Part shown: positions 41,740 through 53,641 of the stretch, in pieces
Layout of the letters: each line of letters begins with the position of its first letter
Position numbering within the stretch: the stretch's first letter is position 1
Assembly: GCA_016744695.1 (NCBI GenBank)
Contig: JADGDV010000008.1
Location: forward strand, 30,637 to 94,636
Direction of reading: 5' to 3'
Origin: Hahellaceae bacterium
Lineage (GTDB): Bacteria > Pseudomonadota > Gammaproteobacteria > Pseudomonadales > Oleiphilaceae
Length of the DNA: 64,000 nt
Notes under the pieces: generated by a model
Database searches by the model: none
Seen by the model: only the letters and a program-made list of their open reading frames with translations
What the model was told of the DNA's origin: nothing
Translations under genes and position numbers: made by a program

Positions 41740-41955
41740 TTAGATTCTAGACTCCAAACGGACTGCAGAATGTTCACAGAATTCAGTCTCAATCGAGTCT
41801 GATAACCCTATAGAAAGCTCCTCCAAGGAAGCGATAGTAATAGGATCCTCATGGAGTAAATGCTTGAGAGGGTATCGCTTGCTTACCTTAACGTTCCAAG
41901 ATAGACCGCAGCTATTCGTAGGTACGGCTTTAATGGCTTTATGTATCGTGTTCAT
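41740..41955 (-). pseudogene. 71-codon ORF coupled to hisI; small protein or truncated gene remnant
   Basis: ATGA overlap with the hisI stop; no family recognised. Confidence 0.35.
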
Positions 41956-42377
41956 GTGAAATTTGCCTCACCTTTGATAAGAACGCGTTGGTTTGGGTGA
42001 TCAACTTGTAGATAGAAGCAGTCTCTGCGGCCTGTATGACATGCTTTTCCCTCTTGTTTCACCTGACAAAGTGCGACATCACCATCGCAATCAAACGACA
42101 TATTCATTAGTGCCTGAGTGTGACCACTGGTTTGGCCTTTTACCCAATATTCTTGGCGGCTTCGAGACCAGTAAGTCATTCGCTTGCTCGACAATGTGCG
42201 TTGCAGTGCTTCTTTGTTCATCCACGCAAACATTAAAATCTCTTTGGTCTCTGAGTCTTGCGTAATCACAGGTAATAGGCCGCGATCATCAAATACAATA
42301 TTATCAATGACTTCGGTAAGTCTTAACTCAGCCCCATCACCCAAATGCTCTAAAGATTTAAAGTAGTGGTGCTCCAT
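41952..42377 (-). CDS. hisI: Phosphoribosyl-AMP cyclohydrolase (zinc-island paralog)
   Basis: GLLPVITQD, YWSRSRQEYWVKGQTSGH and DCDGD...ACHTGRRDCF; start 42377 by TAATG overlap with znuB. Confidence 0.93.
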   Translation of the reverse strand: MEHHYFKSLEHLGDGAELRLTEVIDNIVFDDRGLLPVITQDSETKEILMFAWMNKEALQRTLSSKRMTYWSRSRQEYWVKGQTSGHTQALMNMSFDCDGDVALCQVKQEGKACHTGRRDCFYLQVDHPNQRVLIKGEANFT

Positions 42378-43198
42378 TATATTTTCTTGCCTATAAAGTG
42401 GGGTCGTATGAAAGGTATCAATCTGTGTGCGAGGTTTGTCAAAACAAACAGCAGAGCGCTGACACATACAATGGTTGGCCCCGTCGGCGTGTCAAACACG
42501 TAGGATGCTCGTAATCCAGATAAGCAGGCTGATATACCCAAGATAGCAGCAATAAGCGCCATCATTTCGGGCGTCTTGCTAAACGGCCTGGCTGTTGCCG
42601 CAGGTACAATGAGCATGGCTGCTATGAGTAAAACACCGACTACTTTAATCGAAACCGCAACGACAATTGCAAGTGAAATGGTGAGAACAAGTTGCTCACG
42701 CTTGGGGTCAATACCACTGGCCAAGGCCAGATCGGGGTTGATCGTCGACAAAAGAATACCTGACCAACGCCATACCATGAGAGCCAAAACAATCATAACG
42801 CCAAGAGCGATAACCCATAGGTCGGTTTTTCCCACGGCGAGAATATCACCAAACAAATATGACATTAGATCAATTCGCACCCCTGATAGAAACGACACCG
42901 CGACCAGGCCGATAGCCAGCGATGTGTGTGACATGACGCCTAGCAGGGTGTCCATAGTAAACCCCCTTCCACTTAAGCTTGAAACAGTGATCGCCATAAA
43001 TAAGCACGCAACCAGTACGCCTGCAAAAATAGGGATTGATAGCGCTAACGATAATGCAACACCTAGCACGGCGGCATGAGCGGTTGCGTCACCGAAGTAA
43101 GCCATTCGTCGCCATACAACGAAGCAGCCCAGTGGCGCTGCAGCCAACGCGACACCAACACTTGCTAACATTGCCCTTACTAAAAAATCATCCAGCAT
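42377..43198 (-). CDS. znuB: Zinc ABC transporter permease
   Basis: PLGCFVVWRRMAYFGDATAHAA, YLFGDILAV and TPTGPTIV motifs. Confidence 0.93.
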   Translation of the reverse strand: MLDDFLVRAMLASVGVALAAAPLGCFVVWRRMAYFGDATAHAAVLGVALSLALSIPIFAGVLVACLFMAITVSSLSGRGFTMDTLLGVMSHTSLAIGLVAVSFLSGVRIDLMSYLFGDILAVGKTDLWVIALGVMIVLALMVWRWSGILLSTINPDLALASGIDPKREQLVLTISLAIVVAVSIKVVGVLLIAAMLIVPAATARPFSKTPEMMALIAAILGISACLSGLRASYVFDTPTGPTIVCVSALLFVLTNLAHRLIPFIRPHFIGKKI

Positions 43199-43922
43199 GT
43201 GTCATCTCCGCAGGTAGTGTATTTCGGTGGTGATTGCGATGTAAGTAAAGAGCAGATTCGTTATCTCGATCCAGGCCAAATAGGGCATAATACTCGGGGG
43301 AGTCACTGACTGCTTCGGGTTTACCTTGGCAGCAAATATTGCCATTTAAGCAAATCACACGATCTGTCTGACGCATCACTACGTGCAGTTCGTGACTTAT
43401 CATGACGATGCCACATCCAAGCTTATCTCTAACGTGGGAAATTTGTCGATAGAACTCTGCGGAACCTCGGTGATCTAGCCCTTGCGTCGCTTCATCCAAT
43501 AAGAGTAAGTCAGGTTGGCCTAGCAGGGCCCTTGCCAGCAAGACGCGTTGAAATTGTCCACCCGATAGGTCCATGAGTTGTTCTGACTCTAGCTTGCTGG
43601 CCCCCGCATTCTCCAAAGCTTCTTCAATTGCTAATTGGCTGTGGCCGCTTGGTAAGTTCATAAATCGTTTTACCGTTATAGGGAGTGCCTCATCAATATG
43701 TAGTTTTTGCGGAACGTACCCAATCCGTAACCCTTGTTTTTTATGGATCACGCCCGAACTGGAGGGTACTGCACCGATAATTGCTTTGAACAAGGTAGAC
43801 TTTCCTGAGCCATTGGGACCAATGATCGTCACTATTTCACCTGAATTAACAGATAGCGATATGTTTTGAAGTATTTCCCGCCTTCTTAAATGTACTGATA
43901 AATTTTCACACTCAATCAACAT
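43188..43922 (-). CDS. znuC: Zinc ABC transporter ATPase
   Basis: GPNGSGKST, LSGGQFQRVLLARAL, ISHELHVVM and CLNGNICCQG motifs; ATG at 43922 after AGGTGG. Confidence 0.93.
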   Translation of the reverse strand: MLIECENLSVHLRRREILQNISLSVNSGEIVTIIGPNGSGKSTLFKAIIGAVPSSSGVIHKKQGLRIGYVPQKLHIDEALPITVKRFMNLPSGHSQLAIEEALENAGASKLESEQLMDLSGGQFQRVLLARALLGQPDLLLLDEATQGLDHRGSAEFYRQISHVRDKLGCGIVMISHELHVVMRQTDRVICLNGNICCQGKPEAVSDSPEYYALFGLDRDNESALYLHRNHHRNTLPAEMTHAG

Positions 43923-43997
43923 CAAAAACCACCTACAGAGTTAAAGCGTGGGTTAAATTTTCATTTAACAATCGCTAATTTATGTTTACTGTAAAAT

Positions 43998-44019
43998 AAA
44001 AGATATGTTATAACATCTC
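43998..44019. promoter_or_regulatory. Zur box in the znuC/znuA divergent promoter
   Basis: AGATATG-T-TATAACA with palindromic core ATGTTATAACAT (44005-44016). Confidence 0.8.
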
Positions 44020-44055: not shown

Positions 44056-45045
44056 ATGCCTCACAAGATCCCTGCGCTAGCATTTACTGCTCTCGCTTTT
44101 GTTGCTGCGAGCGTTGTTGCAGAAAACATTGCTGCAGAAAACATTGAAGCTGCAGTCCCAAAAGTGGCCGTTGATATAGCACCTGTACACTCATTAGTTA
44201 GCCAAGTAATGGAAGGTGTTGGACAACCAGACTTGCTGATTCCAGCGGAAGCATCGCCCCATGAATATACCTTGCGCCCCTCACAGGCAAAGGCATTGTC
44301 AGATGCAGATATTGTTTTCTGGACGAGTGAAGCGCTGACGCCTTGGTTGGAAAAAGCGCTGGATAATATTGCACACTCCGCGCAGAAAGTTGAATTATTG
44401 GCGCTAGAAGGCACGGTTACACATAATTATCGAGAAGGCGCTACATTTGAGTCTCATGAGCATCATGATGAAGAAGAACACAGCACTGAAGAAGAGCATC
44501 ATGAAGAAATGGAGCATCATGATGATCATGATGAGGTAGACCCTCACGCGTGGCTAGACCCACAAAACGCAAAGACCTGGTTAGCCAGTATTGCGCAGAT
44601 TCTAGGGAAGAGTGACCCTGCTAATGCACATATTTATGCGGAAAATGCTGCAAAGGCGACTATAAAAATAGATGCGCTCATACACTCGACTCAGTCAGCT
44701 ATCGACACGGTAGGCGAACCGAAATTTATTGTATTTCATGATGCCTATCAATATTTTGAAAAGCGATTTGGTATTTCAGCAGCAGGCTCGATTTCTGTGG
44801 GCGATGCTGAAGACCCTAGCCCTGCACGAATAAAAGAAATTCAGAATACAGTGAATAAACTAGGTGTGACTTGTGTTTTTACTGAACCACAATTTAACCC
44901 TGGCTTAGTGAGAAATGTATTTGAAGGAACTAAGGTAACAACAATGGGTGTGATGGACCCTTTGGGAAGTGATATTAAAATCGGCAACAATCACTACTTT
45001 CGCTTAATTGAGAACATGACAAATAGCTTAAAATCCTGCAAATAA
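44056..45045 (+). CDS. znuA: Zinc ABC transporter substrate-binding protein
   Basis: SPHEYTLRPS, His/Glu-rich loop, DPHAWLDP, FHDAYQYFE and DPLG motifs. Confidence 0.93.
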   Translation: MPHKIPALAFTALAFVAASVVAENIAAENIEAAVPKVAVDIAPVHSLVSQVMEGVGQPDLLIPAEASPHEYTLRPSQAKALSDADIVFWTSEALTPWLEKALDNIAHSAQKVELLALEGTVTHNYREGATFESHEHHDEEEHSTEEEHHEEMEHHDDHDEVDPHAWLDPQNAKTWLASIAQILGKSDPANAHIYAENAAKATIKIDALIHSTQSAIDTVGEPKFIVFHDAYQYFEKRFGISAAGSISVGDAEDPSPARIKEIQNTVNKLGVTCVFTEPQFNPGLVRNVFEGTKVTTMGVMDPLGSDIKIGNNHYFRLIENMTNSLKSCK

Positions 45046-45078: not shown

Positions 45079-45118
45079 TTATTGCAATAATTAAAAGATA
45101 CGTTGCAACGTATCTTTT
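45079..45118. promoter_or_regulatory. Two TTGCAA-centred palindromes: candidate operator of the second metal-uptake module
   Basis: TTATTGCAATAA (45079-45090) and perfect 26-bp AAAAGATACGTTGCAACGTATCTTTT (45093-45118), centres 21 bp apart. Confidence 0.75.
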
Positions 45119-45168
45119 TTAAAAAATCAATACCCTATTTTTCATTATCAAGAGGAAAAAGAAAAATT

Positions 45169-46503
45169 ATGAACAGTACTAAGCAAAAAGGAAGCAAAAA
45201 ACTGAGGCCTCAACCTATCGTCAAATTAGGCGCAGTCCTAATCTCAGTAGCCATACTCAGCGCTTGCGGTAGCAGTAGCAGTAGCAGCGACAAGGATGAT
45301 GAACATGCAGAAACCCATATAGAAACAGAAGGTCGCTTGGCTGTTTTTGACGAAGATGCACAAGCACTAAAGGTGATTGAGCTAGAAGATGGAAATGTCA
45401 TAGACAGTTTTGCCTTGGACGGCACATCAACACCACGTTTGTATTCACTTCCTGGTCAGCGCTATATAGCGGCTATTCAGCGTGGTGACAACCTTGTCTC
45501 ATTTATAGATAGTGGCTTGTATACCGAAGATCATGGTGACCATTTACACGACTACCAAGAAGCCCCCAGCCTTTTGAGCTTTATGCTGACAAACGTGAAA
45601 CCGACTCACTTTGAAGCAGGAGAGGGTCGAGCACTTATCTTCAATGATGGCTCAGACGAAAGTGTTTCCAGTGTATCGGTTTTTTCGGCTGCTAGCATTG
45701 CTGATGGAGAAACGCTTTTTGAAGTGAATCGAGAAACCAATATGCACGGTGCTGCTAAGCTGATTGACGACAACTTATTTGTCACTCATCGCGATGCCAG
45801 CATTACCGATACAACGTTACCCGCCGAAGTTGATCGCTATTCTGTTGACGCAAATGTGGCAACATTTGAAGAGCGTTATGACGCGAAATGCCCCGGCTTA
45901 CATGGTGCGGGTTACAATCATGAAACCCTCATATTTGGCTGTTCTGACGGAATAGTAGCCATCGACCTGCACGATGAAGACTATTCAGCGACTAAATTTG
46001 GTAGCCCGGAGTCAATGGACGACGGCAGTAGAATCGGTTCAGTCTACGCTCACCATGACGTTGAGGCTTTGGTCACCAAGGCAGGCTCCCAACTATTTGC
46101 GACAGTTATTGAAGAGGGCGCTGTCTCCTATGAAGAGTTGATACTTGATGAAGGCGTGACAGCTTTAAGCCAAAATTTCACACCGAATGGTGAGTTTTTT
46201 TGGGTAGTAGGTGATAACGCAAAAATCTATTTATGGAACGCAGAAGAAAGCTGGGCTACGTCCACTTCATTCACAATTTCAGACTCTGAAATCACCTCTA
46301 TATTTGTGGCACCATCAACGGCCAGTCATCAACTGTATGTATTAGATGTTAATAACCAACAAGTGATCACTGTTGATTACGAGTCAGGCATCATTGAAGG
46401 CTCAATTGACTTGGATTTTACGCCTTCAGGACTCGCTTGGATGGGGTTGCCTGAACATGATCATGACGATGAACACGAGGGTGAGCATGACCATGATGAT
46501 TAA
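45169..46503 (+). CDS. AztD-like beta-propeller metal-binding lipoprotein
   Basis: Lipobox LSAC plus poly-Ser linker; EDHGDHLH, KPTHF, MHGAA and CPGLHG...FGCSDG motifs; His-rich tail. Start moved to ATG 45169 because the track TTG lies inside the palindrome. Confidence 0.75.
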   Translation: MNSTKQKGSKKLRPQPIVKLGAVLISVAILSACGSSSSSSDKDDEHAETHIETEGRLAVFDEDAQALKVIELEDGNVIDSFALDGTSTPRLYSLPGQRYIAAIQRGDNLVSFIDSGLYTEDHGDHLHDYQEAPSLLSFMLTNVKPTHFEAGEGRALIFNDGSDESVSSVSVFSAASIADGETLFEVNRETNMHGAAKLIDDNLFVTHRDASITDTTLPAEVDRYSVDANVATFEERYDAKCPGLHGAGYNHETLIFGCSDGIVAIDLHDEDYSATKFGSPESMDDGSRIGSVYAHHDVEALVTKAGSQLFATVIEEGAVSYEELILDEGVTALSQNFTPNGEFFWVVGDNAKIYLWNAEESWATSTSFTISDSEITSIFVAPSTASHQLYVLDVNNQQVITVDYESGIIEGSIDLDFTPSGLAWMGLPEHDHDDEHEGEHDHDD

Positions 46504-46513
46504 GGTGAAATCA

Positions 46514-47653
46514 ATGAAGCAAGGAATTAATGCAGTAAGGAGTATTGCCCAATCAGCGGTACTACCTTTGATGATTGGGGCGGGCATTACATGCTCAGCC
46601 GTGAATGCCAAAGAACTAAACCCGGATATTAGCGTGGTGCTGGATGCTTTGTATATTCAAAACGCCTTTGCTTTAGGGCATGGCGGGCCAGGATTTGTAC
46701 CCGGCCATAACGAACTTTCATTTGGAGCACCTATTGATGACCTGTTCAGTGGGCGCCTAACGGCAGTGATCGAAAGTCATGAAGGTGAAACCGAACTTGA
46801 ATTGGAAGAAGCCTTTATTCAAACAAACGGTCTTGGGTATGGCTTGAGCGTTAAAGCGGGCAGGTTCCTCTCTAACATTGGTTATTTAAACCCCCAACAC
46901 TCTCATGGCGATAGCTTTTCGACACGTCCGGCTGTTTACCGAGCACTGCTAGGCAGTCATTACTTTGATGACGGGCTTCAACTGGCCGTGACCCTCCCTA
47001 CAGATTTTTACTGGAGTCTGTCGGTGGAGGCATTGCAGGGGCAGAGCGTATCTGGCGAGGACGGTATTGGCTTGTATACTTTTAGCACTAAAGTGGGTGG
47101 GGATATTTCTGTATCACAAAGTTGGCAAGCCGGTGTTTCTTATATGAATAACCGCTCGCCTTTGGTCGAGGAAGATAGCCATGACGATCACGATGAGGCG
47201 CATGATCACTCCGGCCACAACCATGGCTTGAGCTATTATGGTGAAAATCTTTATGCCGCAGATCTAGTATGGAAGTGGGCACCAAAAGGCAACAACAGGC
47301 AGCAACAAGTTAGTCTGAGTGCTGAATATTTTTATGTAGATGATCTAAATGAGTTTGCGACTAAAGATGATTTTCATGAGGGTTGGTATACCTCTGCTGT
47401 CTGGCAATTTTCTCCGCAATGGTCAACAGGTTTGCGTTATGGAGAGGTCGATCTAAAGCAACCTCATGGGGATCATTTTCATAGTCAAACGTTGCAAGAA
47501 AGTGACTGGATGCTATCGTATGCACATTCACACTTTTCTACCATTCGGTTGCAATACATGCATCAGTCAGGGGAAGGTTTCACAAATATTGATAATACTG
47601 TGATGCTGCAATACGTAATGAGTTTCGGGGAGCATGGTGCACATGAATTTTAA
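46514..47653 (+). CDS. Zinc-regulated outer-membrane beta-barrel channel/receptor with a His-rich loop
   Basis: Signal peptide; NPDISVVLD, LEEAFIQT, KAGRFLSNIGYLNPQHSH and HSHFSTIRLQY motifs; ends FGEHGAHEF; ATG 46514 after AAGGTG. Confidence 0.75.
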   Translation: MKQGINAVRSIAQSAVLPLMIGAGITCSAVNAKELNPDISVVLDALYIQNAFALGHGGPGFVPGHNELSFGAPIDDLFSGRLTAVIESHEGETELELEEAFIQTNGLGYGLSVKAGRFLSNIGYLNPQHSHGDSFSTRPAVYRALLGSHYFDDGLQLAVTLPTDFYWSLSVEALQGQSVSGEDGIGLYTFSTKVGGDISVSQSWQAGVSYMNNRSPLVEEDSHDDHDEAHDHSGHNHGLSYYGENLYAADLVWKWAPKGNNRQQQVSLSAEYFYVDDLNEFATKDDFHEGWYTSAVWQFSPQWSTGLRYGEVDLKQPHGDHFHSQTLQESDWMLSYAHSHFSTIRLQYMHQSGEGFTNIDNTVMLQYVMSFGEHGAHEF

Positions 47654-48569
47654 GCAGTCAGCTTTACTCATTTTAGTACTGTGCCTTTCGGGAATGAGTG
47701 CTAGGGCAGACTTCAACGTTTTTGCCTGTGAGCCTGAGTGGGCAGATCTGGTTCAATCACTTGTACTAGAGGCCCATATCACAGTCGCGACGAGTGCTTG
47801 GCAAGACCCTCATTATATAGAAGCGCGCCCCAGTCTAATTGCGGCTATGCGCAATAGTAATTTGGCTGTATGTACTGGCGCTTCGTTAGAGGCAGGCTGG
47901 TTACCTGCGTTGATTCAGCGCGCTTCAAACGACACTATTGCAGAAAATCGAGAAGGTCTTTTTTATGCGGCTACCTACGCGCACTTGCATCAGCCTCATG
48001 CGCATGTTGACCGAAGTATGGGAGACGTTCACCCTGAAGGTAACCCGCACTTTCATCTAAATCCGCATGCCGTGCCAAGTATTGTTGAGGCGCTTGTTGA
48101 CCGTATTTCACACGTCGCATCGGCGGAAGAAACTAAATTCTTAAAGGCTCAGCATCTGCGCTGGAAGATGCGCTGGCGGCATGCTCGTGAAGATTGGGAA
48201 GCATACTTACCCAAGTTGCGAGGTATGAAGGTGATTGTGCAGCATACGGGGTTTGAGTATATATTACGCTACGCAGGCATCGAAGCCGTACTTGACCTTG
48301 AACCAAAGCCTGGTTTGCCTCCTACTGCGTCACACTTGAATGCGATCTTGAATGACCCTAGCTTAGATGAGGCGCAGGTTATCATTATCAGTCCTTATCA
48401 AGATCCTCAGCCGGCGCAATGGCTATCAGAGAAAACCGGACTACCGGTGCTTACTTTACCCACAACGGTGACTGACGAGGAGGTGACGGCGACGCTGCCT
48501 AAGCTAATTACCCATATACTTTCTAGTCTTTCAACCTATAGCGGGACAGATACCAAGGGGTTGAACTAA
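47634..48569 (+). CDS. Metal ABC transporter substrate-binding protein (cluster A-I)
   Basis: DPHYIEARPS, GDVHPEGNPHF and EPKPGLPPTASHL motifs. Confidence 0.88.
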   Translation: MVHMNFKQSALLILVLCLSGMSARADFNVFACEPEWADLVQSLVLEAHITVATSAWQDPHYIEARPSLIAAMRNSNLAVCTGASLEAGWLPALIQRASNDTIAENREGLFYAATYAHLHQPHAHVDRSMGDVHPEGNPHFHLNPHAVPSIVEALVDRISHVASAEETKFLKAQHLRWKMRWRHAREDWEAYLPKLRGMKVIVQHTGFEYILRYAGIEAVLDLEPKPGLPPTASHLNAILNDPSLDEAQVIIISPYQDPQPAQWLSEKTGLPVLTLPTTVTDEEVTATLPKLITHILSSLSTYSGTDTKGLN

Positions 48570-48570
48570 C

Positions 48571-49341
48571 ATGACAAATGAGTGGTTCTGGCTGTGGACG
48601 CCCTTGTGCGCCAGTATTTTACTGTCAATAATACTGGTGCCATTAGGAGAGCGTGTTTTACAGCGTGGCGTCGTTTTTGCCGACATTGCTATCGCGCAAT
48701 GGGCTGCTTTGGGTGTTTTACTGGGTGGACAGCTCGCTTGGACGCGAGAATTGACGGCTATATTGCCAGCGCTATCAATCAGTGGTCTATGTTTTTCACT
48801 TCTGGCTTCAGGGCTAGTTCATCTCATTTTGAGGGTTTATGCGCCACATAGGGAGGCGATGATCGGCACCTTATACGTGGCGGGTGCAAGCCTTGCAACG
48901 ATGAGTGTCAGTCATGACCCACATGGTGCCCAAGCACTCGCTGCAACGCTTAATGGTGATTTATTATGGGCTTCAACAAATCACTTTTACGCACTTATTC
49001 CCATTGCCGTTTGTGTATTTGCGTGGCAAAGAATATCTGTAGCTTTGCAGAACCACCTATTCCTTCCTTTATTTGCGTTGGCCGTTACGGTCGCGGTTGA
49101 AGTAGCAGGCATTTACGTTGTATTTGCCACACTCATTTCAACACCGTTGTTGTTATGTCAACTCGCCGGTAAGCGAATCGCTTCAGCAGTATTAGCGTGT
49201 ATAGCTGCACATTTTATTGGCTTGGTATTAGCGGCTTGGTTAGATTATCCGGTAGGCCCCGTTGTGGTGTTAAGCAGTATTTTGTTTACATCACTGGTGT
49301 TGGTGCTGCTGAGTGGCCTAAAGCGTTACGCCAAGGGGTGA
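48571..49341 (+). CDS. Metal ABC transporter permease (ABC-3 family)
   Basis: RGVVFADIAIAQWAALG and EAMIGTLYV motifs; multiple TM segments. Confidence 0.82.
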   Translation: MTNEWFWLWTPLCASILLSIILVPLGERVLQRGVVFADIAIAQWAALGVLLGGQLAWTRELTAILPALSISGLCFSLLASGLVHLILRVYAPHREAMIGTLYVAGASLATMSVSHDPHGAQALAATLNGDLLWASTNHFYALIPIAVCVFAWQRISVALQNHLFLPLFALAVTVAVEVAGIYVVFATLISTPLLLCQLAGKRIASAVLACIAAHFIGLVLAAWLDYPVGPVVVLSSILFTSLVLVLLSGLKRYAKG

Positions 49342-49344
49342 CCG

Positions 49345-49812
49345 TTAGTCGCACTCATTGCAGATGCAGCTCATCTCTAACTGGGGACTTAATAAGCGAT
49401 AACCCGCTTCCGTTACATTGTGTTCAAACTCTCGCAATACTTGCTTGTCGATGCTTATTTCTTGAACCTTCTGACAACGGTCACAAATTAAAAACTGTGG
49501 GGTGGCGTGTTCGTGGTCGCACGAGATATGTGAGCATGCTACAAATTTTTTTGCCAGACTCAGTTTATGAACGAGCTGCTCTTTTTCTAGAAATTCCAGC
49601 ATGCGATAAACTGACATGGCTGGTAAGTTTTCACCGAACTCTGTTTTACAATAGTCAATTAACTCATAGGCTGACATTGCTTGGTTTGATTTTAGTAAAC
49701 TGGACAGAATGAGTTTTCGCTTATCTGTTAGTCTCGTACCGTGTTGCTGGCAGTGTCGTTCTGCATGATCGATGATTGATTGAAGATTAGTCATAATACT
49801 TATAGATTCCAA
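49345..49812 (-). CDS. Fur-family regulator, Zur-like
   Basis: RLTDKRKLIL, SAYELID, SVYRMLEFL, FVACSH, CDRC and terminal CNEC; start may be ATG 49794. Confidence 0.88.
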   Translation of the reverse strand: MESISIMTNLQSIIDHAERHCQQHGTRLTDKRKLILSSLLKSNQAMSAYELIDYCKTEFGENLPAMSVYRMLEFLEKEQLVHKLSLAKKFVACSHISCDHEHATPQFLICDRCQKVQEISIDKQVLREFEHNVTEAGYRLLSPQLEMSCICNECD

Positions 49813-49942: not shown

Positions 49943-50611
49943 TTAGGAATTAAAATCGAGCGTCAACAATAAGCGAGGAGAGTCAGTACTTGGTGACCGG
50001 TGGATAAGTCCAGCACCTTCGTTTCCTTCCCATAATTCACCCTTCAATAGTGACACGTCTCCCACTGTTAGTTGTTGAATAGAATCACTGCCGGCGTAAA
50101 GTCCGGACTCATGATCAGGCAAACCTCCATGACCATGACCTAACATTGATCGGTCTGTAGCCACATTAGTGAGCCACTCTGTAGCAGGGCCTTGATAGGT
50201 TGTTACTAATCGACACGGTACGCGATCAACATGAAACCTAGGACACATTGCATGACTTAGCACGGTTAACCTAAGTCCCACTCGCTCTTGTTCAAACAAA
50301 CAACAAAACATATCAACTAGCTGCGCAATATCTTTCGCTAATGGGGTTATAACATCTATTTTTCCAAGTTCATCAAACAAACTTGGGAGGGCATTATTAG
50401 GGGTTACCGTCACTGACGTTTGAAAAGTAGGGTTCGCTTCGACAAAAGACGCGACCAACTGCTTTAGATTAGGTGGCAACGTCCGTTGCCAGACCGCAAT
50501 ATTCAAAGCCTCATCATAGATACTTGTTAATACAGATGGGTCGCGCCCCTCATCCAATTGCTTTAAGGGTGAGGGCTGGTCAGGTTTTATAGCAAGTAAT
50601 GACGCGTTCAT
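49943..50611 (-). CDS. DUF1826-family protein
   Basis: [34 protein letters not shown] and HRSP motifs; start 50611 by ATGA overlap. Confidence 0.88.
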
Positions 50612-51816
50612 GCTTCTTCCTCCCATACAGGAAAAGGATCGTCTAACGTTGCCCAGTAATTTTTCCCCTGAAGTAGGTCTTCCTCTGACAACAAACATTC
50701 ATTAAGTACATTCGTCATCTTCGTTTGATCAAGCCCTTGGCCAATAAACACTAACTCTTGTCGCATATCGCCAAACGGTTCAACCCAATTGCTCTTGATA
50801 GATTGCAGGTACGTTTCGTCAGTAGGCCAGCTTGATTCTGGAATAGCTTTCCAAAACATACCCGCGAAACCATATCGGGCTATCCCTCCAGCCTGACTCC
50901 AGCTACCGGCAAAATCGGGCCTAGTTGCGAGCCAAAAGTAGCCTTTAGAACGAAGCAATTTTCCGTACTGCTCAGTTCCATGAAGGAAGTCGTAAAATTT
51001 TTGGGGATAAAAAGGCCTACGTGCAACATATGTAAAACTCCCTATACCGTACTCTTCAGTTTCAGGTACATGCTCACCACGCATTTCTTTTAACCACCCT
51101 GGAGCTTGCTGGGCATGTTCGAAGTCAAATAATCCTGTATTCAATACCTGGTCAATATCCACTCGGCCATTATCGATCGGGATTATTTTTGCTGTGGTAT
51201 TGAGTGTTTTTAAAATAGCAGTGAGTCGACCTACGTCAGCTGGCTTAGCTAAATCGGTTTTGGACAGAAGAATCACATCAGCAAACTCAACCTGATCAAC
51301 TAATAAGTCGGCGACACTTCGTTCATCTTCTTCCCCCAACGACTCGCCAGTGTCTTGCAGCGCATTAGCCGCTTCATAGTCATTTAAAAAATTAACGGCA
51401 TCAACCACGGTGACCATAGTGTCTAGTTTTGCCACGTCAGAGAGTGATATGCCATCTTCATCAGCGAAAGTAAACGTCTCTGCTACAGGGAGGGGCTCGG
51501 AAATGCCGGTTGATTCAATGACTAAGTAATCAAATCGACCATCCTTCGCTAGTTTATTTACCTCGATCAGCAGGTCTTCGCGTAAAGTACAACAGATACA
51601 ACCGTTGCTCATCTCTACCAGTTTTTCGTCACTTCGATTTAATGTTACCTCGTTCTGAACGATTGACGAGTCGATGTTAATCTCACTCATATCATTTACG
51701 ATAACGGCCACTTTTTTTCCATCTCGATTATTTAAAATATGACTTAACACCGTTGTTTTTCCTGCACCGAGAAATCCAGATAAAACGGTAACTGGCAGGC
51801 GCATATTCTGTTGCAT
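50608..51816 (-). CDS. COG0523 zinc metallochaperone GTPase (ZigA/YciC subfamily)
   Basis: [38 protein letters not shown] and C-terminal [11 protein letters not shown] motifs. Confidence 0.93.
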
Positions 51817-51848
51817 GATGAAACTCACTTTCTAAGAAATTATATTAA

Positions 51849-51871
51849 TAAATGTTATGATATAACATAAC
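51849..51871. promoter_or_regulatory. Zur box upstream of the ZigA/YciC gene
   Basis: TGTTATG-A-TATAACA (51853-51867). Confidence 0.88.
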
Positions 51872-51957
51872 GCTTAATTTGGTAAAGCGTTATCATGGAG
51901 AAGGCGCTTCCTCATTGATGATTTTTTTGAACGAGTAATAACTTGTTATGAGTGTGA

Positions 51958-51980
51958 GCTATGTTATAACATAACATACC
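51958..51980. promoter_or_regulatory. Zur box upstream of the DUF1007 gene
   Basis: TGTTATA-A-CATAACA (51962-51976), core ATGTTATAACAT. Confidence 0.85.
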
Positions 51981-52014
51981 TGCATTATCTGACTTACTTA
52001 AATAGGGTTGTACA

Positions 52015-52674
52015 GTGTTTCGTTTTGTAATTGCTCAGTTAATGAGTGCTTGGCTTGTGATGACATTATATTCGTCAGCCGTGCAAGGTCATCCACATAA
52101 TTGGGTGACCTTGAAATCTGACTTTATTTTAGACCCTCAGGTACGCTTGATTGAAATAAGGCAGAAGTGGCATTTTGATGCGTTTTATTCATCTATCACT
52201 ATTGCCGATATAGCCAATGAATTTGGTGAAAATAATAAAGCAGGTTTTCACCATAGAGCTAAAGAAATAATCACTAATTTAGGTAGCTACCAATTTTTTT
52301 CAACATTGAAAGTAGATGAGGTTGAGATAGCATTACCCGCCCCTAAGCGGTATCACTTGAATGTGATAGAAATCGAAGGTCAACAAGTTCTCGAACTCGA
52401 AATGCACTTTGTATTAACGAAAGCGGTTAATATTGAAAACAAAGCGGTGTCGTGGTCTGTTTTCGATCCGACTTACTACATTTCAATGTTATACGTAGAC
52501 CTTTCAGAATTTGTAGTACTGGGTGGGAATGCCACAGAGTGCTCTAAAGAGTTGTTTATACCAGAGCCGTCGAGAGAAGCCATCGACTATGCCAGCACGT
52601 TGGATAGAGAGCAGAGAAACACTGAGGGCTTAGGAGACCTGTTTGCAGAAAAAATTCTGTTGAACTGTTACTAA
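52015..52674 (+). CDS. DUF1007 periplasmic metal-binding protein (ZevA-like)
   Basis: Signal peptide followed by HPHNWV; W.FD.FYS and FDPTYYI motifs. Confidence 0.82.
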   Translation: MFRFVIAQLMSAWLVMTLYSSAVQGHPHNWVTLKSDFILDPQVRLIEIRQKWHFDAFYSSITIADIANEFGENNKAGFHHRAKEIITNLGSYQFFSTLKVDEVEIALPAPKRYHLNVIEIEGQQVLELEMHFVLTKAVNIENKAVSWSVFDPTYYISMLYVDLSEFVVLGGNATECSKELFIPEPSREAIDYASTLDREQRNTEGLGDLFAEKILLNCY

Positions 52675-52687
52675 ATGGACTATATAT

Positions 52688-53641
52688 ATGAATAACACCA
52701 GAACATCACCATTCTTCTCTATCAATCGCTGTCTGCAGTTTGTTTTCTTATTACTGATCATTTTGCTTGTTACAGCAACCTACTTTAACTGGGGGCATCT
52801 GTTAGTCTACATAGTTGATTTTCAGAAGCAGTTGCACGCACTCTTGGCAAAACATATTCAACAAGTCGCAAAATCACCGGAGGTTTATGGGTGGTCACTG
52901 ATTGGTTTAAGTTTTGGTTATGGTGTCTTTCACGCGATTGGGCCAGGCCATGGAAAGGCGGTTATTGTTACTTACCTAGGCACTCAAAAAGAAACCATAA
53001 AAAATGGAATTTTTATATCGTTTGTTGCGGCATTACTTCAATCACTGATTGCGATTATCTTAATTAGTATTTTAGTAATGATAATGAAATTTAAGTTCGC
53101 TGATGTGAAAATGATTGGCGAAGATATAACCATAGCAAGTTATCTTCTGGTCGCCTTCTTGGGCCTTTTTGTGACCTTGAGTTCAATACAAAAACTCTAT
53201 GTTCGATACAAGGAGCGTCAAGCCAGTAAATCTCATACCCCGCATACGCATCAGTGCGGCTGTAATCATGCTCACTCACCTAAAAGTAAGCTCACTTTTT
53301 TTCAAACGTTTATGGTGATTATGTCAATGGGGCTTAGACCTTGCTCCGGTGCTTTAGTTGTGTTGATATATGCCCAATTGGTGAATGCCTATTTATACGG
53401 AATAATCGCTACGCTATTTATGGGGCTAGGTACCGGCCTATCAGTCTCATTGATCGCTTTATCAAGCATTTACGCCAGAAAGTGGTTAGAGCGGATGTCT
53501 GAGACTCAAGAAACACTTCGCTGGAGTATCCCGAACGCATCTATCTATATAAACCTAGCAGGTGGCGGACTTTTGCTCGTTATTGGCTGGGGGCTATTTA
53601 GCACTGCAAGTAAAATGAGTTCTGCCCACCCCTTATTGTAA
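52688..53641 (+). CDS. NiCoT/RcnA-like metal transporter (ZevB-like)
   Basis: YGVFHAIGPGHGKAV, His-rich loop HTPHTHQCGCNHAH, GLRPCSGAL and terminal HPLL. Confidence 0.85.
   Translation: MNNTRTSPFFSINRCLQFVFLLLIILLVTATYFNWGHLLVYIVDFQKQLHALLAKHIQQVAKSPEVYGWSLIGLSFGYGVFHAIGPGHGKAVIVTYLGTQKETIKNGIFISFVAALLQSLIAIILISILVMIMKFKFADVKMIGEDITIASYLLVAFLGLFVTLSSIQKLYVRYKERQASKSHTPHTHQCGCNHAHSPKSKLTFFQTFMVIMSMGLRPCSGALVVLIYAQLVNAYLYGIIATLFMGLGTGLSVSLIALSSIYARKWLERMSETQETLRWSIPNASIYINLAGGGLLLVIGWGLFSTASKMSSAHPLL

Follow-up and report, generated by a model that had tools for sequence, protein, structure and literature searches.

We investigated a cluster of closely packed genes in a 64,000-nucleotide stretch of contig JADGDV010000008.1 of a Hahellaceae bacterium; this whole stretch is called the window below. 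Together with an upstream Zur box and a convergent Fur-family gene, the cluster occupies positions 45097-49812. The listing of open reading frames (ORFs) and the family scans showed four plus-strand genes in a predicted operon, encoding an AztD-like lipoprotein, an outer-membrane barrel, a periplasmic solute-binding protein (SBP2) and a ZnuB-like inner-membrane protein (Perm2) (Table 1). The gaps between them are of +10, −11 and +1 nucleotides (nt). The barrel ATG (46514) lies 10 nt past the stop of the AztD-like gene, preceded by the ribosome-binding site AAGGTGA, SBP2 likely starts at 47643, with an 11-nt overlap with the barrel stop (alternative start at 47634), and Perm2 starts 1 nt past the SBP2 stop. 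The nearest ATP-binding cassette (ABC) ATPase gene is znuC (43188-43925). The initial annotation had described four packed genes with a convergent Fur-family gene and without an ABC ATPase among them, and this layout was recovered in full. The tracts rich in His and acidic residues, which it had counted in two genes, are present but number three, as SBP2 also has a short His-rich one.

Table 1. Features of the four-gene operon and of its surroundings, in positions of the window.
Feature	Position	Strand	Basis or remark
AztD-like lipoprotein gene	45169-46503	+	NCBIfam AztD and PDB AztD matches, lipobox
Outer-membrane barrel gene, predicted 16-stranded and porin-like	46514-47653	+	AlphaFold2 (AF2) model and Foldseek; 379 amino acids (aa)
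SBP2, periplasmic cluster A-I (ZnuA-family) solute-binding protein	47643-48569	+	Pfam PF01297
Perm2, inner-membrane protein of ZnuB/PsaC fold, 256 aa	48571-49341	+	Pfam ABC-3, AF2, Foldseek
Fur-family regulator, convergent with Perm2	49345-49812	−	Pfam FUR; best NCBIfam match Zur
Zur-box-like perfect palindrome GATACGTTGCAACGTATC	45097-45114		55 nt 5' of the AztD-like ATG
Canonical znuCB	42377-43925	−	NCBIfam ZnuC 271 bits, ZnuB 257 bits
Canonical znuA	44056-45045	+	NCBIfam ZnuA 209 bits
Shared znuC/znuA Zur box	44002-44019		Palindrome scan
HisI (phosphoribosyl-AMP cyclohydrolase) gene	41952-42377	−	PF01502, 114 bits
DUF1826 and zigA pair	within 49943-53641	−	Pfam DUF1826; NCBIfam ZigA 696 bits
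DUF1007 and NicO-family transporter pair	within 49943-53641	+	Pfam DUF1007, NicO
Two Zur boxes between the zigA-DUF1826 and DUF1007-NicO pairs	51854-51871, 51958-51975		Palindrome scan

Relatives of the barrel were collected by a pattern scan with one genome per species, which found about 590. The best 80 of these loci, with 10-kb flanks, were taken as the survey sample, in which the proteins of the window were searched by tblastn. The order barrel-SBP2-Perm2 (the triad) is kept in 78 of the 80 species loci, distributed over the Gammaproteobacteria (Hahella, Marinobacter, Ketobacter, Endozoicomonas, Marinobacterium, Vibrio, Photobacterium, Moritella, Thalassotalea and Colwellia) and the Betaproteobacteria (Caldimonas, Paucibacter, Ottowia, Chitinimonas and Limnohabitans). 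Since the same order recurs in so many loci of different species, the arrangement goes far beyond chance. No ATPase gene abuts the triad in any of the 80 loci inspected, and the possibility raised with the initial annotation, that orthologous loci normally include an ATPase, was not borne out by this neighbourhood survey. Unbiased clustering of the flanking ORFs found an ABC ATPase ORF within 5 kb in only 20 of the 78 triad loci, on either strand and at variable positions, and the flanking ATPases that were inspected belong to neighbour systems having their own permease (znuCB, zrg-like operons, a FetAB-like pair in locus L018). A znuC or znuC-like ATPase gene lies within 10 kb in the window and in a few loci (L001, L002, L030, L059, L067); most triad loci have no znuC at this distance, the triad standing alone, away from znuABC. 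Its recurrent neighbours are zigA, DUF1826 and a Fur-family gene. The triad defines a zinc-starvation operon family present in hundreds of marine and freshwater bacteria.

Two loci of the sample depart from this order. In a Ketobacter locus (L019), a ZigA-like gene comes after the barrel and SBP2 genes and Perm2 is not detected, and locus L048 has an AztD-like gene and the barrel only. In Marinobacter loci (e.g. L006 and L016), a zrg-like operon, containing a DUF2796-type His-rich protein, a MacB-like permease, an ATPase and a DUF3299-like protein, adjoins the triad, often on the opposite strand; these genomes thus cluster two or three zinc systems.

Perm2 matches the Pfam family ABC-3 (PF00950) with 37.7 bits, for a gathering score of 20.1. 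Its AF2 model, with a predicted local distance difference test (pLDDT) value of 91, exhibits the nine-helix fold of ZnuB and PsaC, and the best Foldseek match is PsaC (7kyp), with a template modelling (TM) score of about 0.72 (0.71-0.75). Alignment with the ZnuB of the window by hhalign gave a probability of 88%. A phmmer search of Perm2 against the PDB sequences gave no match, and the link to PsaC and ZnuB needed the comparison of folds and of profiles. Perm2 is a true ZnuB/PsaC homologue.

In the ZnuB2C2 structure of E. coli obtained by cryo-electron microscopy (PDB 9oko), residues 154-162 of ZnuB form the coupling helix alpha2, which makes the main contact with the Q-loop of ZnuC (PMC12236471). 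The ZnuB of the window aligns residue for residue with that of E. coli, retains the D37/H41 pair, and reads NPDLALASG at 154-162, where the E. coli protein (9oko) reads SPDLAFVDG. The coupling helix is cytoplasmic and lies between TM5 and TM6. Opposite ZnuB 154-166 (STINPDLALASGIDPKRE), Perm2 presents a gap of about 17 residues, which was obtained independently with MAFFT and with hhalign. In an alignment of 73 full-length Perm2 sequences (72 orthologues and that of the window) with four ZnuB sequences, the 18 coupling columns contain 0-2 residues in 73/73 Perm2 and 18 residues in all four ZnuB. In the same way, helices 136-153 and 157-179 of the Perm2 model are joined by a three-residue turn only. 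A profile search of 1.84 billion representatives returned 112 clusters at E<=1e-30; the coupling columns contain four residues or fewer in 119 of 132 full-length top hits, and none of the 132 has the full segment. These sequences point to a protein without the usual means of coupling to an ATPase.

The polar residues of the membrane part also changed. In place of the Asp36/His40 pair of ZnuB, Perm2 has D38, shifted by one position, and Q43; both are invariant, as is a third polar transmembrane residue, E95. In addition, the Perm2 family exhibits an invariant periplasmic motif of its own, D116-P-H118-G, ahead of the periplasmic plug helix.

The initial annotation had proposed that the permease either borrows ZnuC or works without an ATPase, and these data disfavour the first of the two. 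Perm2 could still be an ABC permease powered in trans by the ZnuC of the window, or by another ATPase, one gene having been economised. Such an arrangement would agree with Perm2 being a true ZnuB/PsaC homologue, with the znuC or znuC-like genes found within 10 kb in the window and in the five loci named above, and with the co-induction of znuC and zrgC with the triad in Vibrio parahaemolyticus (PMC9817125). However, neither the 73 Perm2 sequences nor the wider family retain the helix that engages the ZnuC Q-loop, znuC is absent from the 10-kb surroundings of most loci, and an adjacent ATPase in 0 of 80 inspected loci, for a barrel family found in about 590 species, is unusual for an ABC system. 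Powering in trans is therefore judged unlikely, and borrowing of ZnuC appears unlikely because the Perm2 family is universally devoid of the coupling helix.

A decayed, non-functional ABC transporter remnant that lost its ATPase was considered as well. The low scores with curated models (37.7 bits for Perm2 with ABC-3, 87 bits for the AztD-like protein against a cutoff of 400) are what such a remnant could give, but the ORFs are intact and show translational coupling, 78 of 80 loci over two proteobacterial classes share this architecture, with many invariant residues, and induction of the Vibrio orthologues is strong and specific. We hold decay to be hardly credible. Because the ATPase-less layout is conserved and the Perm2 coupling helix is absent family-wide, the loss of the ATPase appears to be an ancestral and selected trait, old and fixed in a sizeable family.

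SBP2 belongs to the ZnuA family (PF01297, 99.4 bits for a gathering score of 29), and its residues His57, His136 and His201 align with the three ligand positions of E. coli ZnuA (2ogw). Sequence comparison identifies the barrel-SBP2-Perm2 core with the omr-znuAII-znuBII cluster of V. parahaemolyticus (omr-znuA2-znuB2 in RegPrecise; VP_RS21430, VP_RS21425 and VP_RS21420), whose solute-binding protein (SBP) is Vpa1307. The V. harveyi orthologues (locus L041) are 46%, 39% and 32% identical to the barrel, SBP2 and Perm2 of the window, respectively. From the V. harveyi SBP, a V. parahaemolyticus protein that is 81% identical and has 2000 member sequences (P0279) was found; counted from the upstream start, it presents His69 and His148, matching the positions reported for Vpa1307. 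The published third His of Vpa1307 (H202) is unmatched in this protein, in which the canonical third His is at 206, or at 212 from the upstream start. The V. parahaemolyticus locus itself (L081) encodes a 380-aa protein without Pfam match, a 309-aa ZnuA-family protein and a 267-aa protein with a weak ABC-3 match.

In V. parahaemolyticus, zinc limitation induces omr, znuAII and znuBII 1034-, 543- and 283-fold, the strongest induction in the Zur regulon, and the regulon table includes znuC and zrgC as the only ATPases and no orphan ATPase (PMC9817125). Induction of vpa1307 by zinc limitation was also reported, the gene being needed for full growth under zinc depletion (PMC3794297). To call the system uncharacterised, as the initial annotation did, was thus an overstatement, the triad being listed as a Vibrio Zur-regulon cluster and Vpa1307 having a zinc-limitation phenotype (PMC3794297, PMC9817125). 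The publications on the Vibrio cluster describe the barrel as a TonB-dependent receptor and see in the other two proteins a second ZnuA/ZnuB pair; neither PMC3794297 nor PMC9817125, nor other searchable literature, mentions the porin fold or the absence of the ATPase and of the coupling helix. The window locus is the form of this known but mis-annotated cluster that is equipped with an AztD lipoprotein and stands beside znuABC and a probable zur.

The window contains four sites with Zur-type palindromes (8 strand hits, for 0.93 expected), all four being located between genes, in the promoter regions of zinc genes. The palindrome in front of the AztD-like gene probably serves the four-gene operon as operator; its GTTGCAAC core recurs at the equivalent place in the Hahella locus L001, about 65 nt 5' of the AztD-like gene there. 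When the orthologous operons were scanned for the 12-mer core, with at most 2 mismatches and within 350 bp upstream, a Zur core was found in 45 of 77 loci, for 0.019 expected. The metal regulation required by the initial annotation is thus supported by the Zur boxes, here and in the orthologous loci, and by published RNA sequencing (PMC9817125). The product of the convergent gene passes the threshold of the Pfam FUR family (PF01475) with 50 bits, and its best NCBIfam match is Zur (PRK11639), with 75.5 bits, below the cutoff of 167. As four Zur-type boxes are found nearby, this regulator is most likely Zur.

In the operator of the window, the core GTTGCAAC replaces the usual GTTATAAC; the changes are symmetric and preserve the palindrome, and the variant is common to Hahella. 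The same palindrome can form a weak hairpin with a T-run and has flanking A/T runs, and it may also terminate znuA transcription. About 15 of the 80 loci have a Fur-family gene beside the triad, in Betaproteobacteria usually downstream and co-directional. In eleven betaproteobacterial loci (L022, L028, L032, L033, L044, L045, L047, L058, L060, L071 and L072), it lies directly 3' of Perm2, in the same direction, and is probably part of the operon.

The DUF1826, zigA, DUF1007 and NicO-family genes downstream are further zinc-starvation genes. The Zur boxes between zigA and DUF1007 point to another putative Zur-controlled metal transporter, of the NicO family. On the other side of the operon, the HisI gene begins at the end of znuB and is probably co-transcribed with znuCB from the promoter containing the Zur box; its product may be a zinc-starvation paralogue of a Zn-dependent enzyme. 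The C-terminal ~55 residues of the window ZnuC are Cys/His-rich (CLNGNICCQG...LHRNHHRN...) and resemble the C-terminal zinc-sensing domain of E. coli ZnuC (PMC12236471). An Rfam scan of the 41-54 kb region found no riboswitch and no small RNA, and promoter and terminator consensus scans performed no better than on shuffled sequence. A search of sequencing runs traced the window to marine metagenomes and found no RNA runs for it.

Zinc specificity was weighed against a role in the uptake of another metal (Mn, Co, Ni or Cu) or of a metallophore. Mn and Fe are also among the substrates of cluster A-I SBPs and ABC-3 permeases, a gene for a NicO-family transporter is found nearby, and His-rich tracts are not metal-specific. 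Against this, Zur boxes are present in the window and upstream in 45 of 77 loci, the Vibrio orthologues are massively induced by zinc limitation and zinc rescues growth (PMC9817125), the three-His set of SBP2 is typical of Zn-type SBPs, and AztD is Zn-specific in the characterised system (PMC6689063). A substrate other than Zn2+ is very improbable.

The first protein of the operon scores 86.9 bits with the NCBIfam model AztD (NF038015; E 1e-24), whose cutoff is 400, and matches the PDB sequences of AztD (6cmk, E 1.4e-17; 6ck1, E 2.4e-11), which places it in a putative divergent subfamily of AztD, a family characterised by an eight-bladed beta-propeller. It presents a signal peptide, the lipobox ILSA|C33 and a Gly/Ser linker, with N- and C-terminal tracts rich in His, Asp and Glu. 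Of 26 AztD-like orthologues, 24 have the lipobox (L-[AST]-[AG]-C) and, after it, GGSSS, so that the assignment in the initial annotation of a probably lipid-anchored AztD-family protein holds. The metal sites were compared with those of the Paracoccus denitrificans protein (PdAztD), with a numbering verified on the ligands published for it (PMC6689063). The site-1 triad H147, H193 and H245 (PdAztD H124, H167 and H218) is kept in 24-25 of 25 orthologues, the site-2 motif H122-G123-x-H125 (PdAztD H99-G100-x-H102) is invariant in the 25, and the position of the site-2 residue D104 of PdAztD is occupied by a His (H127) in all of them. The Cys pair C241/C258, equivalent to the PdAztD disulfide C214-C231, is found in 25/25. 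Most orthologues end in His, like PdAztD with His408; the window protein ends ...HDHDD. AztD passes the zinc of site 2 on to its SBP through an associative mechanism, and was proposed to promote zinc accumulation in the periplasm (PMC6689063).

The lipoprotein residue at position +2 is usually Gly among the AztD-like orthologues. Under the Lol sorting rule established in E. coli, this suggests that the protein is anchored in the outer membrane. The AztD-like gene is present in about one third of the loci and in no Vibrionaceae locus. The initial annotation had made the lipoprotein a core element of the relay; as its gene is missing from about two thirds of the loci, it is an accessory element. 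In locus L046 (9646-9951) and in four other loci of Thalassotalea/Colwellia type, the place taken by the AztD-like gene in other lineages, 50-250 nt 5' of the barrel on the same strand, is occupied by a conserved ORF; its product, of about 101 aa, contains an HCQVC motif and its N-terminus is signal-like.

The barrel, of 379 aa (about 347 in the mature form), has an N-terminal hydrophobic helix ending in AVNA|KE, which qualifies it as a Sec signal peptide. The Pfam scan found neither Plug nor TonB_dep_Rec, only a weak sub-threshold BBP2 match. The AF2 model, calculated with a 21-sequence alignment (pLDDT 79.8), exhibits 16 strands and no plug. In the Foldseek search of this model against the PDB, the top 50 matches are all porins (E down to 3e-12, TM 0.55-0.60), the best being OprO and OprP, followed by OmpF, OmpC and Omp38. 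A TonB-dependent receptor is defined by a plug and a 22-stranded barrel, and typically has at least 650 aa. Because the barrel has no plug, 16 strands in the model and less than half the size of a receptor, the TonB-receptor annotation appears wrong and the protein is predicted to be a 16-stranded porin, which agrees with the initial annotation in that it is not a classical TonB-dependent receptor. The label carried by P0047, P0056 and P0065 is a propagated misannotation of a porin-fold protein of about 375 aa. A Slam-type lipoprotein translocon, considered since the barrel gene adjoins a lipoprotein gene, was rejected, no DUF560 or TPR signal being found and the fold being that of a 16-strand porin.

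The mature barrel contains 21 His (6.1%), and 47 Asp and Glu for 15 Lys and Arg. Across 77 orthologues, four His are invariant (H130, H132, H375 and H378), and conservation is 80% or higher for H66, H150, H341 and about ten acidic residues of the strands. H130 and H132 sit in an L3-like loop of 31 residues, which joins strands 5 and 6 and includes a short helix, and H375 and H378 belong to an invariant C-terminal GxHGAHxF motif, the window barrel ending ...HGAHEF; all aligned homologues have a final aromatic residue (F or Y). The loop between strands 9 and 10 (about 214-245) is disordered and rich in His, Asp and Glu in nearly all members sampled. Porins usually have both termini in the periplasm. 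From this general rule of topology, the His-rich loop and the tip of the HGDHFH hairpin would face outward, and H341, H375 and H378 would lie at the periplasmic exit; the loop with H130 and H132 may form a constriction of L3 type.

Taken together, these data are consistent with a Zur-repressed, zinc-starvation-induced and envelope-spanning Zn2+ acquisition system of the omr-znuA2-znuB2 family. The extracellular loops rich in His and acidic residues would capture Zn2+, which would cross the outer membrane through the acidic, His-studded 16-stranded porin. In the lineage of the window, the lipid-tethered AztD-type chaperone, at the inner leaflet of the outer membrane, would take the ion at the periplasmic exit, and either the chaperone or, directly, the invariant C-terminal His pair of the porin would load SBP2; where there is no chaperone, SBP2 would take the ion directly. 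SBP2 would then dock on a Perm2 dimer, whose periplasmic Asp116 and His118 could receive Zn2+, and the ion would enter the cytoplasm without a nucleotide-binding subunit, with Perm2 as a uniporter or secondary carrier that depends on the SBP and is powered by the membrane potential and by the very low free zinc of the cytoplasm. We give a probability of roughly 0.6 to this overall picture of an envelope-spanning Zn2+ relay ending in ATPase-free import. The last step taken separately, true ATPase-independent import by SBP2 and Perm2, is held more tentatively, at somewhat less than even odds. The membrane potential pulls divalent cations inward and cytoplasmic free zinc is kept extremely low, so that ATP-free entry of Zn2+ is thermodynamically reasonable. 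It is more speculative that the frequently adjacent COG0523 GTPase ZigA serves as cytoplasmic acceptor or energiser. As for the relay from the outer to the inner membrane proposed in the initial annotation, its parts are present, and the physical chain of hand-offs between them is one that we infer.

Several points weigh against this picture. The essential His40 of ZnuB is a Gln in Perm2 and the Asp is shifted, hence the translocation chemistry would differ from that of ZnuB. Perm2 may make a non-canonical contact with a nucleotide-binding domain encoded elsewhere. The growth role of ZnuAII in V. parahaemolyticus RIMD2210633 is minor, and visible only in a zrgA-deleted background (PMC9817125). 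Finally, the AztD-like protein, by its absence from about two thirds of the loci, is not essential to the core mechanism.

Some of these points would suit a system acting only in the periplasm, in which the porin, the AztD-like protein and SBP2 buffer zinc for ZnuABC or other importers, and Perm2 is a dock, a sensor or a release factor. The replacement of the functional His40 with the shift of the Asp, the minor phenotype of ZnuAII in RIMD2210633 (PMC9817125), the position of the operon, which abuts znuA-znuCB in the window and in Hahella, and the proposal that AztD raises periplasmic zinc (PMC6689063) are all compatible with it. Nevertheless, Perm2 retains the full nine-helix PsaC/ZnuB fold in a confident model, its invariant D38, Q43 and E95 and the D-P-H-G motif fit a transport path better than a passive anchor, and in most genomes the triad is alone, away from znuABC. 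A purely periplasmic function is judged improbable, and import through Perm2 remains the preferred reading.

If import through SBP2 and Perm2 is ATPase-free, the pair would be the first binding-protein-dependent importer of transition metals without any ATPase. The membrane domain of an ABC type-II importer would have been converted to an SBP-gated uniporter or secondary carrier, that is a new transporter class and a case of evolutionary repurposing. With a Zn-selective porin lined by His and acidic residues and, in some lineages, an AztD chaperone tethered to the outer membrane, it would make a complete and energy-frugal Zn2+ relay from the medium to the cytoplasm, driven solely by an affinity gradient and the membrane potential, and would explain why the most strongly zinc-regulated operon of V. 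parahaemolyticus has no energising subunit. The barrel would be a dedicated zinc-regulated porin in several hundred species, pathogenic vibrios included, and its widespread database label of zinc-regulated TonB-dependent receptor needs correction. The most interesting point is a whole family of ZnuB-like proteins that would dispense with an ATPase.

Two known systems were rejected as matches. ZrgABCDE of V. cholerae has a DUF2796 binding protein, a MacB-like permease and its own ATPase, and the ZepA exoprotein system of Anabaena is unrelated.

Among the closest systems is the Vibrio omr-znuA2-znuB2 cluster, from which the window locus differs by its AztD-like lipoprotein, its adjacent probable zur and its adjacent znuABC. 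With ZnuABC of E. coli, the module shares the ZnuA fold family with three His ligands in SBP2, the nine-helix fold in Perm2 and regulation by Zur; unlike ZnuB, Perm2 has no alpha2, has a Gln for His40 and has gained the D-P-H-G motif, and it has no cognate ZnuC. AztABCD of P. denitrificans similarly presents an AztD homologue near a cluster A-I SBP and a permease of ABC-3 fold, under Zur control, and the AztD-like protein retains zinc site 1, the H-G-x-H part of site 2 and the Cys pair of the disulfide. However, the window protein is a lipoprotein with a Gly/Ser tether, whereas characterised AztD of Gram-negative bacteria has no lipobox, its site-2 Asp104 is replaced by His, the AztA ATPase is missing here, and the gene of an outer-membrane channel is placed between those of the chaperone and the SBP.

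At the outer membrane, the barrel resembles OprP/OprO and OmpF/OmpC by its 16 predicted strands, its long third loop and its C-terminal aromatic residue, these porins being its best structural matches, although no sequence similarity to them is detectable. OprP offers the concept of a charged ladder selecting one type of ion; its ladder is made of Arg and Lys and serves anions, whereas the acidic and His-rich barrel suggests a selectivity for cations or zinc. The TonB-dependent zinc receptors (ZnuD/TdfJ, and ZnuK/L/M of Caulobacter) likewise provide a Zur-regulated entry of zinc through the outer membrane, but the barrel, with about 347 mature residues, less than half their size, has no plug, no TonB box and no 22-strand barrel. 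At the inner membrane, the precedent for a periplasmic binding protein feeding an ATPase-free membrane carrier is given by the tripartite ATP-independent periplasmic (TRAP) transporter DctPQM and the tripartite tricarboxylate transporter (TTT) TctABC, which have unrelated folds and organic-anion substrates, whereas Perm2 would derive from the membrane domain of an ABC type-II importer.

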